A stretch of DNA of 64,000 nucleotides from an uncultured Mycoplasmatota bacterium (GTDB lineage Bacteria; Bacillota_I; Bacilli_A; RF39; UBA660), in assembly GCA_946497955.1 (NCBI GenBank), contig CAMMMH010000005.1, positions 7,789 to 71,788 on the forward strand, given 5' to 3'. The notes below the pieces were generated by a model that did no database searches, was not told the DNA's origin, and saw only the letters and a program-made list of their open reading frames with translations. Positions 1 through 33,641 of the stretch are shown here, one piece after another. Numbering within the stretch: the stretch's first letter is position 1; each line of letters begins with the position of its first letter. The translations under genes and the position numbers were made by a program.

Positions 1-118
1 GCATGTCCTATCGCTAAATATTTCATCTTTTTATCACCACTATTAGTATAACAACTTTTTTTAAAAAAATATATAAAAAGAAAAGACTATAGTGTAAATA
101 TTTGTTATAATTAATAAA

Positions 119-742
119 GTGGTGATTAAATTGAAAAAAAAAGAAAAAAAGAAATTAACAAAAAAACAAATAATTATTTTTATAATAGCTACAATAATTT
201 TAAGCATTCTATGCTATTTTATTACTATAGAAATTACTAAATCTATTATAGATCATAAAACAGTTGCAAAATGGGAAAAAGAAGATTCTTATTCAGATTT
301 AATTGAAGTAGATACAATTGATAACATTTCATTACAAGATTTAATTAATAACTTTAATGAAATTACTGATGAAGATATTAATATAGAAGATATAAATAAT
401 AACAAAATTACAATCGATAACATAGAGCTGATATTTAATTTAAAAGATGATAATAATATTAATATAGTAAGTATTAATTTCAATAATAAAAATAATAAAG
501 TAAAAGAATTAATAAGTAATATGATAATAGCAAATAATGATGATATTGATAATGATACTGTAGATCTAATATATAACAAAGTATTTGAAACACTTGGTAA
601 CACAACTAACGATGATAGTAAAACTTCAGAATTCTTTCAATATCAAGGACTAGAATTTAGTTTAAAAGAATATAAAGATAATGATTATAAGTATAGTTTT
701 AGAATAGGAAGAATTACAGAAAAAAATAAAAGTGATGAATAA
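119..742 (+). CDS. hypothetical membrane-anchored protein, Asn/Asp/Ile-rich
   Basis: 207-aa ORF. Lys-rich N-terminus, one hydrophobic helix (IIIFIIATIILSILCYFITI), low-complexity N/D-rich remainder. Start is GTG 119 or, more likely, TTG 131 preceded by GGTGA. No family recognised. Confidence 0.55.
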   Translation: MVIKLKKKEKKKLTKKQIIIFIIATIILSILCYFITIEITKSIIDHKTVAKWEKEDSYSDLIEVDTIDNISLQDLINNFNEITDEDINIEDINNNKITIDNIELIFNLKDDNNINIVSINFNNKNNKVKELISNMIIANNDDIDNDTVDLIYNKVFETLGNTTNDDSKTSEFFQYQGLEFSLKEYKDNDYKYSFRIGRITEKNKSDE

Positions 743-770
743 ATTTCAACACTTTTTTATTATCGATATT

Positions 771-1675
771 AGACTTCTTGCGAAACTAAGTATCTAAGCA
801 AAGATTATAAAAACTGCATATTATAAGAAACCTAGAATAAAATGTATTTATGCGACTTCTATACCTTTCAGACAAAATTCTAAAAATTTTTAGTTGACTA
901 TTTACGTGTTCAACTGCTATTCTAATACTAGAAATCAAAGTATTTAGTTCTTTATCTTCGCCGGTAAGTGGATTATTCTTTGATTTCTTTTTTGGTGTCA
1001 TACTATTTTTAAAATAATCTAGTATTCCTTGATATCCACTATCTGCAAGAAACTTCAATGTATCTGGCAATTCTTTAGTAGTGTTTTTAAATATGTTAAA
1101 GTCATGAACACTTCCTTTATCAAAACATACAGATACAATTTTTCTATTTTTTTCATTCATGATTATTTGTATTTTAATAGTATGTTTTTTCTTTTTACCA
1201 GAATAATATTCTTTTTGTATATCATAAACTTTAGGTCTTTGGATAGTACACTCTGTTACATCTACTAACTGTTCACTATTTTCATCTAAATCTCGTATAT
1301 CAATTACTCCTGATAGTGCTTCTTTTAATTTGTCTTCACTCCATTTTACCCAACGATGAGCATTAGATTCATCTAAACCAAACATCATTCCTAATTTGAA
1401 AAATGTAGGATAATCTCTATAATAAGTTAAAGTCATTAATAAAGTATCTTCAATATTTAAATTTGGTTTTCTTCCACCTAATTTATGCTTTTCTTCATAA
1501 GATGGTCTTAACACTTCAACTAAGATTTCAAATAGTTCTCTAGGTATTCCTACAGCCCTTTTAAATCTTCCATCTTTCATTTTTGCTAACTTTTTATACT
1601 TCATACATTTACAACTCCTTATATTATAAGGATATCATATTTTTATTATATAGTAATTAGTTTCGCAAGAAGTCT
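771..1675 (-). mobile_element. complete IS element, IS5 superfamily (DDE_Tnp_4 / Harbinger-like transposase), 905 bp
   Basis: Perfect 19-bp terminal inverted repeats: AGACTTCTTGCGAAACTAA at 771..789 and its reverse complement at 1657..1675. Identical ATT on both flanks (768..770 and 1676..1678) fits a 3-bp target-site duplication. One transposase ORF fills the element. Confidence 0.85.
786..1604 (-). CDS. IS5-superfamily DDE transposase (HTH_Tnp_4 + DDE_Tnp_4 type)
   Basis: 272 aa. N-terminal HTH region (FKRAVGIPRELFEILVEVL). DDE core pattern LVDVTECTIQRP...YYSGKKKKHTIKIQI...GSVHDFNIFK...LADSGYQG typical of DDE_Tnp_4 transposases. Confidence 0.85.
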   Translation of the reverse strand: MKYKKLAKMKDGRFKRAVGIPRELFEILVEVLRPSYEEKHKLGGRKPNLNIEDTLLMTLTYYRDYPTFFKLGMMFGLDESNAHRWVKWSEDKLKEALSGVIDIRDLDENSEQLVDVTECTIQRPKVYDIQKEYYSGKKKKHTIKIQIIMNEKNRKIVSVCFDKGSVHDFNIFKNTTKELPDTLKFLADSGYQGILDYFKNSMTPKKKSKNNPLTGEDKELNTLISSIRIAVEHVNSQLKIFRILSERYRSRINTFYSRFLIICSFYNLCLDT

Positions 1676-1922: not shown

Positions 1923-3653
1923 AATAGTTACTTTTTTTCACACAATTATTCTGATAAAATCCCATAATTATATGATAAGATAATAATGAAAATAAAAGGA
2001 GTTTTAAAGATGGGAAATACATTAGGTAAATTACAAACTAGAGTTAATGAATTAGAAAAGAAGTTAGTAGAATTGCAAGATAGAAACTCTGAATTAATAG
2101 AAGAGAAGAAATCACTAACATCTAAACTAAAATATTTGGAAGAAAACTATGATAAGAAATTAGAAGCTACTTTAACTAAAGCAGTTACTAAGGCAGTTCA
2201 AGAAGTAAGCGAAAAATACGAAAAAATAATAAAAGAAAAAGATAAAAGAATATTTGAACTAGAAAAAAGACTTAATATAAATTCTAGTAATTCAAGTTTA
2301 CCTAGTAGTAAAGATCCTATATATAAATCAAAAATATGTAATTCAAGAAAAGAAACTGATAAAAGTAAAGGAGGACAAATTGGTCATAAAAAACATAAAT
2401 TAGAAAAATTTAATGATAACGAAATAACAGAAGAAGTAAATCATACTATAGATAAATGCCCTAACTGTAATAGTAAAAATATTAAAGTAACAAATATTAA
2501 AACAAGAGATGAACTGGATTTTAAAATTACTATAATAAAAAGAAGACACTATTTTAATTCCTATGTGTGTGAAAATTGTAGTAGTAAATTTAAAAGTGAG
2601 ATACCAGATAATTTACATGCAGAAAATCAATATGGTAGTGAAGTAAAGACTCTAGCCCTAAACTTACTTGATTATGGTTTTATATCTTATAATAGAGTAA
2701 GGAAAATAATAAGTGGATTTACAAATGGAGAAATAGATCCTAGTGAAGGTTATTTAGTAAAACTACAAAAGAAAGCTTCTAATACGCTTGAAGATTTTGT
2801 CTTTGATGTAAAAGAAAAAATATTAGAATCTAAATTAGATTATTGGGATGATACAGTCGTAAAAATAGGAGAAAAAGATAAAGCATGTATGAGAACATAC
2901 ACTAATGGAAAAGAAGTATTATATAAAGCTCATCTTGCAAAAGATACTGATGGTATGGATGAAGATGGTATATTGCAAAACTTACCTAGTGATTGTACTG
3001 TTATGCATGATCATTTATTACATAACTATTGTGATGATTACAGTTATAAAAACATAGAATGTAATGCACATATAACAAGAAAATTACAAAGTATAACAGA
3101 AAATACTAAACATGATTGGTCAGACAAGATGAAAGAGTTATTGGAAAGTACTTTGGCTAAAAGAGATGACTATGAAAAAAAGAAATTTAAATCTTTTAGT
3201 GAAGAAGAGATTAAAGACTTTGATAGTAAATATGATTCTATTATTAAAGATGGCTTTAAAGAGTATATAGAGTTTAAACATAAATATGAGTTTACTAAAG
3301 AAGAGAATCTATTAGAGTTTATGAGAGACTTTAAAGAGCCAATAACTGAGTGGGTTAAAAATTTTTCTTTGCCATATTCAAATAATTTATGCGAGAGATT
3401 ATTAAGAATGTTGAAGGCAAAGATAAAAATAAGTTATCAATTTCAAAATCTATCATCTGCTAAGTATTTTGCCAATATTATAACTTACACGGAAACTTGT
3501 GGTAACTATGGTGTTAATAAATATGAAGCGATAAAGAGATTATTTGATAATAACCCATATACTGTTACTGAACTTAGAAATTTAAAAATAGCCAACAATC
3601 AATAAATTGGCTGATTTTTCCAGTTATTTATTTTCTAGGCTGTGAATAGTTAC
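1899..3653 (+). mobile_element. IS66-family insertion sequence, single-ORF type, about 1.75 kb
   Basis: 14-bp inverted termini GTAACTATTCACAG (1899..1912) and CTGTGAATAGTTAC (3640..3653), beginning with the GTAA typical of IS66-family ends. Contains one IS66-type transposase. I could not see a flanking direct repeat. Confidence 0.7.
1986..3605 (+). CDS. IS66-family transposase
   Basis: N-terminal coiled coil, SSNSSLPSS...GGQIGHKKHKL motif, Cys pairs CPNCNS and CENCSS (zinc finger), catalytic-core motifs MHDH and CNAHITRKL. Likely true start is ATG 2010 (AAAGGAG 8 nt upstream). Confidence 0.85.
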   Translation: MKIKGVLKMGNTLGKLQTRVNELEKKLVELQDRNSELIEEKKSLTSKLKYLEENYDKKLEATLTKAVTKAVQEVSEKYEKIIKEKDKRIFELEKRLNINSSNSSLPSSKDPIYKSKICNSRKETDKSKGGQIGHKKHKLEKFNDNEITEEVNHTIDKCPNCNSKNIKVTNIKTRDELDFKITIIKRRHYFNSYVCENCSSKFKSEIPDNLHAENQYGSEVKTLALNLLDYGFISYNRVRKIISGFTNGEIDPSEGYLVKLQKKASNTLEDFVFDVKEKILESKLDYWDDTVVKIGEKDKACMRTYTNGKEVLYKAHLAKDTDGMDEDGILQNLPSDCTVMHDHLLHNYCDDYSYKNIECNAHITRKLQSITENTKHDWSDKMKELLESTLAKRDDYEKKKFKSFSEEEIKDFDSKYDSIIKDGFKEYIEFKHKYEFTKEENLLEFMRDFKEPITEWVKNFSLPYSNNLCERLLRMLKAKIKISYQFQNLSSAKYFANIITYTETCGNYGVNKYEAIKRLFDNNPYTVTELRNLKIANNQ

Positions 3654-30372: not shown

Positions 30373-31105
30373 AAAGTATTATACTAGTTGCAACCCCAAC
30401 ATTAAGGCTTTCTACAACTTCATTCATTGGGATATAAATAAACTTATCACTCATCTCTAAATACTTAGGATTAACCCCATTACCTTCATTACCAATAATA
30501 AGGGCAAAGACTTCTTTTTCATCATGAGATAAATTCTTAACTTCTTCCCCATACTTAACATAAGTAGAGAATACTGGTATTTTTAATTTCTTTAGTATAG
30601 GAATCAATTTATCAATAGAATAAAAGACTATCGGAACATGAAATATCATTCCTTGCGTCGCTCTTACTACTTTAGGAGAATATACATCTACTGAGCCATC
30701 TCCTATTACAATAGTATCTATATTAAAAGCTACGGCACTTCTAATAATAGTACCCATATTACCAGGGTCTTGAATCTCATCTAATATTAGAATTCTCTTA
30801 CCAATAGTAGTATCTATTATCTTTTCACAAAGTCCTATCATCTTAGGAGGAGAATTTAAAGTACTTATTTTCTTTAAAACTTCTCTACTTACTTCTACCT
30901 GTTCTACATCTATTGGTAAAACCTCTCCTTCTTCTAATAAGACTTCTTTTAGGACACCAGCTTTATAAGCTTCTAATACTAAATGTTCTCCTTCTACCAT
31001 AAACTCATTATTAAGGTCACGATACTTCTTCTTCCCTAATTTATAATAGTACTTAACTTTCTCATTATCTAAACTAGTTATAACCATACTACTCCTCTTC
31101 TCCAT
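30347..31105 (-). CDS. TrmH/SpoU-family RNA 2'-O-methyltransferase
   Basis: 252 aa. DEIQDPGNMGTIIRSA, LIIGNEGNGV and ESLNVGVATSIILYE are the three SpoU motifs. Confidence 0.85.
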   Translation of the reverse strand: MEKRSSMVITSLDNEKVKYYYKLGKKKYRDLNNEFMVEGEHLVLEAYKAGVLKEVLLEEGEVLPIDVEQVEVSREVLKKISTLNSPPKMIGLCEKIIDTTIGKRILILDEIQDPGNMGTIIRSAVAFNIDTIVIGDGSVDVYSPKVVRATQGMIFHVPIVFYSIDKLIPILKKLKIPVFSTYVKYGEEVKNLSHDEKEVFALIIGNEGNGVNPKYLEMSDKFIYIPMNEVVESLNVGVATSIILYEMDEADD

Positions 31106-31739
31106 ATTTATTAGTTAATTTTCTCCACTTCTTATAATCAGGGCAATTCTCTTCAACAATAGCCCAAAACTTCTTAGAATGATTCGCTTCTATTAAATGA
31201 CTTAACTCATGATAAATAACATAATCAAGGCATCCTATATCTTTAGTAATTAATTCTGTGTTTAATGTTATAACATGAGTCTTAACATTACATACTCCCC
31301 ATCTAGTAGTCATCTTCCTAAGTCTTAGTTTAGGATGAGGAATACTTCTTGTAAAATTATTATAACACATTTCTAGATGTTCACTAAAAATACCTAAAGC
31401 TTGTTTCTTCTTCCATTTATCTAAATCAAAATCTCTTTTAATAAAAACTTTATTCTCACCTAATTTAAAGTCACAAAACTCTGTATATATAATATCATAT
31501 TTTTTACCTAAATAGTAAAATTCACTATTAAATTTTATCTTTTCTTTAACTTTCTTAATCATTTTTCTAATAGAATCATAGTTTTCTTCTATTACACTCA
31601 TTATCTTTTTATTAGAGGTTAAAGTATTACAAGTAACATAAATAGTTAAATCATCTTTAACTCTAATATAAATATTTTTAGTTGTACTTTTCTTAACTAT
31701 TTCTAAATTATAAGTTTCATTATCTATTGTTAATGTCAT
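31089..31739 (-). CDS. YgjP-like (DUF45) zinc metallohydrolase
   Basis: C-terminal HELSHLIEANHSKKFW (HExxH...H) in a 216-aa protein. Confidence 0.7.
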   Translation of the reverse strand: MTLTIDNETYNLEIVKKSTTKNIYIRVKDDLTIYVTCNTLTSNKKIMSVIEENYDSIRKMIKKVKEKIKFNSEFYYLGKKYDIIYTEFCDFKLGENKVFIKRDFDLDKWKKKQALGIFSEHLEMCYNNFTRSIPHPKLRLRKMTTRWGVCNVKTHVITLNTELITKDIGCLDYVIYHELSHLIEANHSKKFWAIVEENCPDYKKWRKLTNKYGEEE

Positions 31740-31752
31740 AAAATCATCCCTC

Positions 31753-31781
31753 TTGATAAAATTAATTATTTATGATAATAT
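31753..31781 (+). promoter_or_regulatory. sigma-A-type extended -10 promoter of small-RNA unit 1
   Basis: TTGATA (31753..31758) - 17 nt - TAATAT (31776..31781) with TG at 31773..31774. Confidence 0.6.
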
Positions 31782-31878
31782 GAATATGTAAAGAGAATTT
31801 ACATATTATAAAAAAGAGGAATACCTAGCTTTTGAGCAGTTAGGTACTATCCCAATTTTTGTGGATTATAGTACCACT

Positions 31879-31980
31879 CTAAGGAGTAGGTACTATTTTT
31901 ATTAACATAAATAATAAAACGATTATTATGAAAATAAGTGAAAATATGATATAACATAGAAATTTTTCAAGTTTTCTCAT
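31879..31980 (-). CDS. candidate type I toxin-like small hydrophobic peptide (33 aa)
   Basis: My translation: MRKLEKFLCYIIFSLIFIIIVLLFMLIKIVPTP. GGGGAG Shine-Dalgarno (31989..31994) lies 8 nt upstream of ATG 31980. One TM helix with a charged N-terminus. Below the track's size cutoff. Confidence 0.5.
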   Translation of the reverse strand: MRKLEKFLCYIIFSLIFIIIVLLFMLIKIVPTP

Positions 31981-32057
31981 ATTATCAACTCCCCTTTCAC
32001 ATTATAAAAATATAAGTTAGGGGGATAGTACCTAATTGGCTAAGTATTCCTAGGTAA

Positions 32058-32086
32058 ATAATAACACAAATGTATCTTCAATACAA
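32058..32086 (-). promoter_or_regulatory. candidate promoter of the small-peptide mRNA
   Basis: Minus strand: TTGTAT (32081..32086) - 17 nt - TATTAT (32058..32063) with TG at the extended -10 position. It is embedded in the loop and arm of the plus-strand terminator. Confidence 0.4.
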
Positions 32087-32128
32087 GCGAACAAGATACA
32101 TTTTTTTATGAATTTTCTATTAAAAATA

Positions 32129-32157
32129 TTGAAACAATCAAATCTTTATGCTAATAT
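32129..32157 (+). promoter_or_regulatory. sigma-A-type extended -10 promoter of small-RNA unit 2
   Basis: TTGAAA (32129..32134) - 17 nt - TAATAT (32152..32157) with TG at 32149..32150. The -10 region and downstream TGAATATGTAAA are identical to unit 1. Confidence 0.6.
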
Positions 32158-32163
32158 GAATAT

Positions 32164-32416
32164 GTAAATTTTCTTTACATGAGGAGTACTTAGTTTTCGT
32201 TTGGATGTTACCCCAAAAAACAGGTTGAATATACTAATTAATAGAGAATTTTACTATCTATAAATAATTAAAAGAATAATAATTATTAATAAGATAACTA
32301 TTAAGAAATCTTTCTTACTCAAAAGTAAGTACAAATTAATTTACATCATTCGTTACTAAGTATTCCTAAGTAAATGATAGTCTAAATGTATCTTGTTCAT
32401 TAAGATACATTTTTTT
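32164..32416 (+). ncRNA. candidate small RNA, unit 2 (about 250 nt, paralog of unit 1)
   Basis: Same 5' start sequence, same 5'/3' pairing blocks (32182..32193 with 32356..32367) and same terminator arms (32384..32394 / 32402..32412, then T7) as unit 1. The terminator abuts the stop codon of the convergent 408-aa gene. Confidence 0.45.
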
Positions 32417-33641
32417 ATTTTGAATATGTTTTCATTTTATTAATAAAATCATTATTTTTACTTATAGTATCTTCATCAAAAGAATGGCCATGAATATTAA
32501 AATCATTCTCATATAAACTAGTTAAGAAAATACAATAATTTATAAAATTATCTTTTCCTAAACTATCATTAATAAGAGAAAGACTATTATTGATAGCAGA
32601 AGAGTCAAAAAGTTCTCTATAAGTACCTAATAAAGGATTTACTAAAGGAAGATAAAAATCATAGGCACTCTTATATAAAGTATCATCATTACCATCTTGA
32701 TCAAAGATATAAACATTATCTTTTCTTAATCTTTCAAATAAACTTCTTGCTTTTTCCTGTGTTCTAAATTCATTAAAGACACGATAATCTTCACTTATTA
32801 CAATACTACACATTTTATTACTTATTTCACTTACATGAACTAATTCATGTAAAAGAGTTATATCAAGATCTTTATTAAGATATTTTTTTAAAAGAGGAAA
32901 TGAAATATAAGTCTTAGAATAATTTTCAGATATCTTATAAAATGTTGTAATTGCATTTACATCATAATCAAAATCATCTTCAAAGTAAATTAATTCTCTT
33001 GCAATTATTACTTTTTTATAGAAAGCTACGTCTTTTATATTATCTAATCTATCTAAAATATTTTTACCAAAGATAGTATTTTTAATAACATTATGTTCTA
33101 ATACTTTTTCTTGTCTATTTAGAAATTGTATACAATCATCTAGTTTTTCTTCATCTAATAAAGGAATAATTCCTATCATTTTGCAAGTATCTATATAATC
33201 TTGTTGTAATTCTAAAAGTAAGTCTTTTTCCTCATTATCATAAGTTAAATATTTTTTATATCTTTTATCAAAAGCATCAAATCTAAGTCCTAGAATAACT
33301 TCTTTATTTTTATCAAATACATCATCACTAATATTTAACAGTTCTTTTAAATATCTAAGAGTATAATCATCTATTTCATCTTGTAACTTTTCTCCCTTAC
33401 TCATATAGTCATCCATTAATGATTTATAATATTTTAAATTATCTAAACTACTATCTAACTTTTTTATTGTTTCATAAGTAACATCAGGAGTTGAATCAAA
33501 GAAATAAATTGCATCTTTAATTCTTGTAGCGATTAAGTCTTTAAAACTTTTACGATAAGAACTAGCGATTAGATCTATTAGATAATCCCTATATTCTAAA
33601 AATCTTTTATTAGGATTTAATAATCTATCTATGTCTTTCAT
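32415..33641 (-). CDS. hypothetical HExxH-motif protein, translationally coupled to obg
   Basis: 408 aa. HELVHV is the only recognisable motif. Its ATG overlaps the obg stop (TAATG at 33639..33643). Confidence 0.55.
   Translation of the reverse strand: MKDIDRLLNPNKRFLEYRDYLIDLIASSYRKSFKDLIATRIKDAIYFFDSTPDVTYETIKKLDSSLDNLKYYKSLMDDYMSKGEKLQDEIDDYTLRYLKELLNISDDVFDKNKEVILGLRFDAFDKRYKKYLTYDNEEKDLLLELQQDYIDTCKMIGIIPLLDEEKLDDCIQFLNRQEKVLEHNVIKNTIFGKNILDRLDNIKDVAFYKKVIIARELIYFEDDFDYDVNAITTFYKISENYSKTYISFPLLKKYLNKDLDITLLHELVHVSEISNKMCSIVISEDYRVFNEFRTQEKARSLFERLRKDNVYIFDQDGNDDTLYKSAYDFYLPLVNPLLGTYRELFDSSAINNSLSLINDSLGKDNFINYCIFLTSLYENDFNIHGHSFDEDTISKNNDFINKMKTYSK

Follow-up and report, generated by a model that had tools for sequence, protein, structure and literature searches.

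The 64-kb stretch of DNA analysed here (the window) is essentially identical to contigs of Candidatus Onthousia excrementipullorum (L003 and L047), which belongs to an uncultured lineage of gut Bacilli, and the genomes of these Onthousia-like bacteria measure about 1.5 Mb. Within the window, a 678-base-pair (bp) gap separates a gene for an M48/YgjP-like peptidase from a gene for a protein of 408 amino acids (aa), and this gap holds two consecutive units, unit 1 (31753-32107) and unit 2 (32129-32416). An earlier note on this DNA had proposed that they represent an unannotated type I toxin-antitoxin locus and a decayed copy of it. This proposal is strongly supported by the comparative evidence presented below, namely purifying selection on the open reading frame (ORF), covarying pairing in the predicted mRNA, and homology of unit 2 to an intact toxin type, here called type B. 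The plus-strand promoters, the hairpins followed by T7, the 5' and 3' pairing blocks, the 33-codon ORF and the GGGGAG Shine-Dalgarno (SD) sequence all lie where the earlier note had placed them, or within 1 nucleotide (nt) (Table 1). The plus-strand promoters of both units are followed by the identical sequence TGAATATGTAAA. Unit 1 ends 70 nt before the ATG of the M48 gene, with which its toxin-sense strand is co-directional. Promoter-like hexamers in this AT-rich region are not more frequent than expected by chance (23 versus 17 ± 4.6 in shuffled sequences), and the case made here therefore rests on conservation across relatives rather than on motifs.

Table 1. Positions in the window of the two units, their parts and the flanking genes. 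Transcripts, promoters, terminators, helices and the roles as toxin and antitoxin are predictions.
Feature	Position	Strand	Remarks
M48/YgjP-like peptidase gene	31089-31739	−	Pfam YgjP-like
Unit 1 antisense small RNA promoter, TTGATA-N17-TAATAT	31753-31781	+	TG at −15/−14; predicted start about 31788
Unit 1 antitoxin small RNA, about 113 nt	31788-31900	+	5' hairpin, complement of toxin 3' untranslated region, terminator hairpin and T5
Unit 1 toxin mRNA, 242 nt	31810-32051	−	starts AGGAAUAC 7 nt after the −10 element, ends CCUCUUUUUU
Helix H1, 3' arm (GCUAGGUAUUCCU)	31817-31829	−	followed directly by C and U6 (31810-31815)
Helix H2, 3' arm (GGGAUAGUACCUAACUG)	31837-31853	−	in the 3' untranslated region
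Stop-codon hairpin (ATAGTACC...GGTACTAT)	31870-31896	both	stem-loop of the mRNA; on the plus strand, terminator of the small RNA
Toxin ORF, type A, 33 aa (MRKLEKFLCYIIFSLIFIIIVLLFMLIKIVPTP)	31879-31980	−	kept in 17 units
SD sequence GGGGAG	31989-31994	−	8 nt upstream of the ORF; paired to upstream CCCCC in the predicted fold
Helix H2, 5' arm (CAAUUAGGUACUAUCCC)	32022-32038	−	followed by the anti-SD run CCCCC (32020-32024)
Helix H1, 5' arm (AGGAAUACUUAGC)	32039-32051	−	extreme 5' end of the mRNA
Toxin promoter, TTGTAT-N17-TATTAT with TG extension (TGTTATTAT)	32058-32086	−	−35 element inside the loop of the upstream hairpin
Outer hairpin, AAATGTATCTT/AAGATACATTT, 11 bp	32068-32107	both	T7 on the plus strand; A7 before the hairpin on the minus strand
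Unit 2 antisense promoter, TTGAAA-N17-TAATAT	32129-32157	+	TG at −15/−14; intact in all nine unit 2 copies, substitutions in the spacer
Unit 2 antisense RNA, about 250 nt	32164-32416	+	internal terminator deleted; runs to the outer hairpin (again AAATGTATCTT/AAGATACATTT, 11 bp) and T7 at 32384-32416
Unit 2 decayed type B toxin frame (..SKKDFLIVILLIIIILLIIYR*)	32254-32334	−	aligned with intact type B units
408-aa gene	32415-33641	−	no Pfam domain

To collect relatives, we scanned GTDB genomes with the M48 protein, which gave 71 loci, and metagenomes with a pattern of 21 bases taken from the unit's conserved 3' module, which gave 31 more (individual loci carry L numbers below). About 45 intact related units were found in at least eight unrelated chromosomal contexts; 43 of these went through automatic processing, and comparisons of strands and of small RNAs (sRNAs) were made on 40 distinct units. 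Upstream of the M48 gene, the element occupies the same slot in some 30 species of Onthousia. L026, L028, L031 and L032, which are more distantly related, have the M48 gene without the element, obg lying immediately next to M48 in L031 and L032, so that the element is an insertion in a subclade. The metagenome loci are mostly non-syntenic, with Mur ligase, Dus, PFOR, rhomboid, C1 peptidase, RNHCP, DUF218 and TnpB genes as neighbours. As the earlier note would have it, both the mini-ORF and the pairing blocks are conserved in related genomes. Besides units 1 and 2, no further copies of the 5' and 3' blocks were found within the window; the near-match CTAGGTATTCCTA at 1540 was discarded, as it lies inside a DDE transposase gene and is surrounded by no other parts of a unit. 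Searches of viral contigs and of plasmids with the element gave no match, and the only phage hit, to a Lak phage (57 nt, 81%), was judged to be due to chance.

The intact units encode at least three types of peptide of 22-33 aa, each behind a strong SD sequence, and either AAAGGGGA or AAAGGAGG is present in all of them. The peptides share a common design, in which a charged head (MRKLEK, MNKKD or MKTK) precedes a stretch of some 20 hydrophobic residues without charge, and a single transmembrane helix is predicted. Type A, which includes the peptide of unit 1, has the 33-aa consensus MRKLEKFLCYIIFSLIF[IV]II[IV]LLFMLIKIVPTP. Type B peptides are 22-24 aa long (for example MNKKDFLILSLIIIIVLLIIYR and MTKKDFLITMLIVIIILLIIYN), longer type B variants also occurring among the metagenome loci, and a third type was obtained from metagenome loci (for example MKTKTFIIKVLKLIPLILLSLSFLVLTFKIK and MNRRIFVLKVLKHISIILSLVIILIIVIKK). 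The slot upstream of M48 holds either a type A or a type B peptide, always behind AAAGGGGA. The ratio of nonsynonymous to synonymous substitution (dN/dS) is 0.30 within type A and 0.14 within type B, where 20 of 22 third codon positions vary compared to 8 second positions. In both types the two alternative frames are closed by stops. By these measures of codon evolution, the mini-ORF is a real coding gene under purifying selection. Exact look-up of the 33-aa peptide in protein databases gave no record, and a query padded with seven in-frame upstream codons retrieved a single relative, of 42 aa, among 5.8 billion database proteins. With Pfam and NCBIfam at E ≤ 10, no toxin family was found for the peptides, the only matches being chance, transmembrane-like ones.

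When the occupants of the slot are compared (window 31740-32110 versus L007-L012, L015, L022, L027 and others), type A is found in some species and type B in others. The M48 gene at its flank shows 94-96% nucleotide identity, and the units only about 70%. From these identities, the exchange of type A and type B at one slot looks like cassette replacement by recombination.

The minus-strand promoter that had been proposed to start the toxin mRNA exactly at the 5' block is borne out by the relatives. An extended −10 element, TGnTAnnAT, is kept in 43 of 43 units and places the start 7 nt downstream, on (A)GGAA at the block; the earlier note had not mentioned the TG extension. The predicted mRNA measures 225-243 nt in all 43 units, and in each of them the nucleotides at the very start are paired, in the minimum-energy fold, with those that immediately precede the U-run. 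The mRNA predicted for unit 1 has a minimum free energy of −76.5 kcal/mol (z = −8.5) with its 5' end paired to its 3' end, and that of a type B unit reaches z = −7.0. In unit 1, the last 40 nt or so ahead of the U-run are paired with the first 32 nt or so, in two adjoining helices named H1 and H2. For H1 (AGGAAUACUUAG with CUAGGUAUUCCU) we compared 18 distinct pairs of arms, in which 92% of the cells are paired. Compensatory double changes were observed at 6 of the 13 pairs, for example U-A to C-G and C-G to U-A, as well as A-U to U-A in L025. None of 500 shuffles reached the observed score, and registers slid by 1-3 nt were only 26-46% paired. The end-to-end pairing of the mRNA, which the earlier note had deduced from a single genome, thus withstood this covariation check.

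A long-range inverted repeat had likewise been noted in unit 1. It is present, but instead of 14 bp it spans 17 nt with 94% complementarity (31837-31853 with 32022-32038) and constitutes H2. Over 38 distinct units, the predicted energy of the H2 duplex ranges from −14.5 to −30.6 kcal/mol with a median z of −4.1, and H2 exists in at least four unrelated sequence versions, such as UUAGGUACUAUCCC/GGGAUAGUACCUAA, GGGUGUUUUACCUC/GAGGUAAAUACC and GUUGGGUGGAUC/GGUCCACUCAAC, each peptide type having its own co-adapted H2 sequence. The G-U wobbles of H1 fall on the toxin-sense strand throughout the family, and in 39 of 40 distinct units the toxin-sense strand folds more stably than the reverse complement (mean −72.4 versus −59.8 kcal/mol, a difference of 12.6). 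Together, the wobbles and the strand-specific stability indicate that the structure is selected in the mRNA and not in a full-length antisense RNA. An argument of this kind had been made from the single G-U position in each unit of the window. It holds family-wide for the toxin mRNA, but for unit 2, where the plus strand had been favoured, it is not consistent across the copies, that of L027 showing the opposite pattern. Inside the closed mRNA, the SD sequence is predicted to pair with an upstream CCCCC or CCUC in a local hairpin. Moreover, the 5' untranslated region (UTR), the end of the ORF, the segment after the stop codon and the 3' UTR can form two mutually exclusive pairings in both types A and B, as toxin mRNAs that fold metastably also do (PMC6733600).

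On the opposite strand, 38 of the 40 distinct units passed a scan for a promoter (TTGnnn, a 17-nt spacer with TG, and TAnTAT) and a terminator, the remaining two wanting only a clean T-run. The sRNAs predicted in these 38 units are 105-126 nt long, with a 5' hairpin and a hairpin with U-run at the toxin stop codon. In unit 1 the 5' hairpin occupies 31788-31802 in the fold (31786-31804 as an inverted repeat), and the whole sRNA folds at −34.8 kcal/mol with z = −5.0 (RNAfold). The predicted sRNA is perfectly complementary to the 3' 90 nt or so of the mRNA, a stretch in which the 3' arms of both H1 and H2 lie; it overlaps the last 19 nt or so of the ORF in type A and none of it in type B. Since the loop of the mRNA stop-codon hairpin and that of the sRNA terminator are complementary, they are a candidate for the first contact between the two RNAs. 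Further upstream of the ORF lies the outer hairpin, which precedes the toxin promoter, holds its −35 element and abuts the stop codon of the upstream gene. Because of this position it looks like an insulating or bidirectional terminator, which would stop antisense RNA that reads through. Divergent units have a different upstream hairpin in the opposite orientation.

The earlier note had assumed that a fully overlapping antisense RNA of about 320 nt runs to the outer hairpin. With a conserved terminator at the stop codon this is probably not the case, and from the positions of these signals intact units most likely produce an antisense RNA of 105-126 nt that ends at the toxin stop codon. The alternative, in which each unit produces one long plus-strand RNA (about 320 nt in unit 1 and 250 nt in unit 2) that extends from the promoter to the outer hairpin and T7, fully overlaps the toxin mRNA as in ibs/Sib, has its own 5' and 3' blocks paired and acts as the functional antitoxin, appears unlikely to us. 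It draws support from the outer hairpin, which with its T7 is a good and conserved plus-strand terminator, from the deletion of the internal terminator in unit 2, which makes a 250-nt RNA likely there, from the precedent of the SR6 read-through species (PMC6562991), and from the stable fold of the 320-nt RNA (z = −7.5). Against this, 38 of 40 distinct units have their antisense hairpin and U-run directly at the stop codon of the toxin, the divergent units L078, L088, L099 and L100 lack a terminator in antisense orientation upstream of the promoter of the toxin, and the global fold is selected on the toxin-sense strand, as shown by the H1 wobbles and by the greater stability in 39 of 40 units.

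Unit 2 is carried by nine genomes, and intact homologues of its frame are the type B toxins of sister species, which have 22-24 aa and a strong SD sequence, MNKKDFLILSLIIIIVLLIIYR among them. That its hydrophobic frame has neither an ATG nor an SD sequence had already been noticed, and the alignment accounts for both: the ATG has become TTG, and about 30 nt with the SD and anti-SD were lost, as were the post-stop hairpin and the U-run. In the toxin promoter the TG is missing, and a deletion within the loop of the hairpin has removed the −35 element. The −10 element of this promoter, which had been read one base out of register as CTATCA, is TATCAT (5 of 6 positions). What is retained are the antisense promoter and the outer terminator; the 5' and 3' blocks lie at 32182-32193 and 32356-32367. 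By this alignment unit 2 is a toxin-dead relic derived from a type B toxin unit. As the internal terminator is deleted, transcription would run on to the outer hairpin and T7, and a plus-strand RNA of about 250 nt from unit 2 is plausible (predicted fold z = −3.4). Purifying selection on unit 2 overall was not detected, its 88-96% identity among copies being similar to that of M48 third codon positions (86-91%).

Inactivated units also occur elsewhere in the family. In L050 a type-B-like unit (1170-1470) has decayed by a TTA to TAA change (MNKKDF*ILSLVMIIFLLLFLLFIVLI), L079 carries a nonsense mutation, L082 has lost the start codon, and L094, L097 and L102 are 5'-truncated relics that keep the sRNA gene. 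This repeated pseudogenisation of the ORF, in unit 2 and in these copies, is a pattern of decay typical of toxins and would lend indirect support to a toxin function. The L050 unit, in a rumen metagenome-assembled genome labelled Erysipelotrichaceae, occupies another locus, where a RelB/YafQ type II toxin-antitoxin pair (1708-2293) comes directly downstream, and an intact version of its peptide is found in the metagenome locus L088. In L094 only the sRNA gene and the toxin 3' UTR remain (about 1300-1450), adjoining a gene for an IS605-type OrfB/TnpB (35-1180, minus strand). Tandem pairs of intact units were seen in L090 and L078. That of L090 (676-1440), upstream of a Mur ligase gene, has intact type B ORFs in both units (MNKKDFLNSALIIIIILLIIFR and MKKKDMLIVILLIIIILLIIYN), and may show the state of units 1 and 2 before unit 2 decayed.

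Scans with Rfam had been suggested as a means to exclude a known RNA family. No match at the gathering score was obtained in the window, and none overlapped the unit in 8 other loci; a hit to GibS (E = 1.6, 22.7 bits versus a gathering score of 115) was rejected as a chance match that merely reflects a hairpin plus U-run. The units nonetheless show the features of the type I class, with a small hydrophobic peptide of less than 60 aa that has one predicted transmembrane helix and, in 38 of 40 distinct units, a predicted cis-antisense sRNA with its own promoter and terminator. The features listed for toxin mRNAs in T1TAdb are SD/anti-SD sequestration, 5' and 3' stem-loops and a long-distance interaction of the 5' end with the 3' end (PMC8594479). 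In the predicted folds of the present family we found SD sequestration as well as closure by H1 and H2, the latter in 43 of 43 units and with covariation.

The earlier note had likened the design to ibs/Sib and to hok-like fold-back. Because the predicted sRNA ends at the stop codon, the closest known design is instead the 3'-overlap class of Bacillus, represented by bsrG/SR4. In bsrG/SR4, txpA/RatA, bsrE/SR5, yonT/SR6 and bsrH, a convergent mRNA and sRNA overlap at their 3' ends, as is predicted here. The sizes are also comparable, as the Bacillus systems have mRNAs of 255-294 nt, sRNAs of 100-222 nt and peptides of 29-59 aa, with read-through species known for SR6 (PMC6562991), and the present family has predicted mRNAs of 225-243 nt, sRNAs of 105-126 nt and peptides of 22-33 aa. 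In the bsrG mRNA, nt 1-35 pair with nt 232-262, the SD sequence lies in a short helix of stem-loop SL1 and the stop codon in SL3. SR4 is complementary to the bsrG 3' end, its terminator loop first contacts loop 3, and its binding extends the helix that sequesters the bsrG SD sequence from 4 bp to 8 bp (PMC3834814). The closing helix, the SD sequence in a short helix and the stop-codon loop facing the sRNA terminator loop each have a predicted counterpart here. Similarity of sequence or covariance model to bsrG/SR4, on the other hand, is absent from the Rfam, Pfam and NCBIfam results. Furthermore, SL4 of bsrG is a separate terminator stem-loop, whereas in the present family the 3' arm of the closing helix leads straight into the U-run, the only alternative being a local 8-bp hairpin that shares the H1 3' arm. 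Unlike in the Bacillus 3'-overlap peptides, the charged residues are N-terminal and the hydrophobic helix stands at the end. Finally, in contrast to the Bacillus prophage systems, the sampled copies adjoin housekeeping genes and no recognisable prophages, and their host is an uncultured gut lineage.

Other type I systems share less with the family. Like hok/Sok and aapA/IsoA, it has a full-length mRNA that is predicted to be closed by 5'/3' pairing and to have its SD sequence sequestered, and its mutually exclusive pairings, local as well as long-range, suggest metastable folds that form during transcription (PMC6733600). In those systems, however, it is the 5' region that the antisense RNA covers, and the mRNA becomes active, with its target exposed, through truncation at the 3' end. 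The antisense RNA predicted here is complementary to the 3' arm itself, and its promoter lies beyond the mRNA 3' end. Compared to hok/Sok, a mok-like leader ORF is missing, and the anti-SD is local and upstream rather than at the 3' end. The likeness to ibs/Sib consists of the very short hydrophobic peptide, the tandem loci and an antisense RNA opposite the toxin gene, but Sib fully overlaps the ibs ORF whereas the present units have a conserved terminator at the stop codon, beyond which some read-through to the outer terminator may occur, and neither Pfam Ibs_toxin nor Rfam Sib gave a match. Fst-type peptides have a charged tail at the C-terminus, and there was no match to Pfam Fst_toxin. With fst/RNAII (par of pAD1) and SprA1/SprA1as the family has in common the convergent transcription, a peptide of about 30 aa and a 5' structure that limits translation, all in Gram-positive bacteria. 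According to PMC3834814, pairing in fst/RNAII relies on direct repeats at the 5' ends together with a bidirectional terminator that both RNAs share; in the present units the two 5' regions have no direct repeats in common.

Taking these data together, we consider it probable (roughly 0.78) that unit 1 is a chromosomal type I toxin-antitoxin module and unit 2 a toxin-dead relic, and that both belong to a new family in Candidatus Onthousia and related uncultured gut Bacilli. This family is previously unannotated. In the proposed mechanism, the minus-strand extended −10 promoter would start the mRNA of about 242 nt at AGGAAUAC. This mRNA would be closed by H1 and H2, its SD sequence being held in a local hairpin by the upstream C-rich anti-SD. 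By analogy with bsrG/SR4, the terminator loop of the sRNA would first contact the complementary loop of the stop-codon hairpin, and a duplex of about 90 bp would then form and lead to RNase III-type cleavage and decay, while the displaced 5' arm of the mRNA would leave the anti-SD free to tighten sequestration of the SD sequence. If the sRNA were lost, the peptide would be made and the membrane damaged. On this analogy we infer that the peptide is a membrane toxin that would be silenced at three levels, namely by the closed mRNA, the sequestered SD sequence and the antisense RNA.

Two other explanations dispense with a toxin. The unit may be the gene of a small membrane protein with a cis-antisense regulator, the peptide being non-toxic and having, for example, a regulatory or accessory role. 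Purifying selection shows that the peptide has a function and not that it is toxic, known toxin families are unmatched, and in seven contexts the unit lies just upstream of a co-directional gene. Still, we give this explanation little credence, because the units have spread in multiple copies to unrelated intergenic sites and are duplicated in tandem (L090, L078), the peptide type is replaced at one locus between near-identical genomes, the ORF was repeatedly inactivated in independent copies, and a triple layer of repression is predicted. Such spread, type replacement, ORF inactivation and triple repression are hallmarks of type I toxins and not of housekeeping small proteins. It is also conceivable that the element is a cis-regulatory leader, attenuator or promoter region of the M48/YgjP-like gene, or a non-functional repeat of the MITE (miniature inverted-repeat transposable element) type. 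The toxin-sense strand is co-directional with M48 and the unit stops a mere 70 nt before its ATG, a promoter-like site for M48 (TTTACA-N16-AATAAT) overlaps the conserved 3' module, and the alternative pairing of four segments resembles an attenuator. We rejected the leader, attenuator and MITE readings on genomic context and coding evidence, and regard them as highly improbable. The units adjoin many unrelated genes and are convergent with their neighbour in at least four contexts, M48 occurs without the element in L026, L028, L031 and L032, the ORF is under purifying selection, and the ends of the unit are not terminal inverted repeats of each other. The more specific idea that the 3' module is conserved as the M48 promoter was likewise rejected. 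The module is equally conserved with or without a downstream M48 gene, and unit 2, in which the spacer differs, keeps only the plus-strand hexamers and not an M48-type −10 element, so that the conservation reflects the sRNA promoter.

Several points weigh against a type I toxin-antitoxin module. The U-run of the mRNA follows a long-range helix or a weak local hairpin of 8 bp and not a classic GC-rich terminator, and a terminator scan of the region found no terminator at the mRNA 3' end. The transcript ends were deduced from matches to promoter and terminator consensus, and in AT-rich DNA such signals often arise by chance. As the relatives are closely related, the shuffle-based covariation statistics overstate independence, and much of the covariation in H1 and H2 rests on few events between types. 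The metagenome copies were selected by a pattern in the sRNA 5' hairpin and promoter, and retention of the sRNA in the relics is therefore partly a matter of ascertainment. Lastly, the peptides resemble no known toxin family in Pfam or NCBIfam.

A further, speculative extension of the toxin-antitoxin interpretation is that the family forms a modular chassis, in which a near-invariant module of antisense promoter, 5' hairpin and U-run is combined with swappable cassettes of toxin ORF and long-range helix. Unit 2 would then be more than debris: it would be kept because its long antisense RNA, now an orphan, protects against type B toxins that arrive from outside or lie nearby, a form of cross-immunity (anti-addiction). 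We consider this doubtful.

Finding type I systems is difficult, as gene callers pass over such short peptides and the RNAs are specific to a lineage. The present family reveals no new principle. It adds a well-delimited family (about 45 intact copies, at least three toxin types) to a gut lineage that is uncultured, has small genomes and had no annotated family of this kind, and it provides natural covariation support for the bsrG-like design of a closed mRNA and a 3'-overlapping antitoxin outside Bacillus prophages. In addition, it supplies short membrane peptides and orthogonal sRNA/mRNA pairs for testing or reuse.

Some observations concern the surroundings of the units. In L088, an L31-Firmicutes ribosomal protein leader (Rfam RF03156, 36 bits) lies at 41-72 on the minus strand, upstream of and outside the toxin unit. 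The protein encoded by the 408-aa gene of the window contains an HELVH (HExxH-like) motif. Among close relatives this gene is far more divergent than M48 (55-90% nucleotide identity), and it is missing in L028, L031 and L032, where obg abuts M48; it may be part of the same accessory insertion as the toxin-antitoxin element. At the left end of the window there are transposase genes of the DDE_Tnp_4/IS5-like type (786-1604, minus strand) and of the IS66 family (1986-3605, plus strand).

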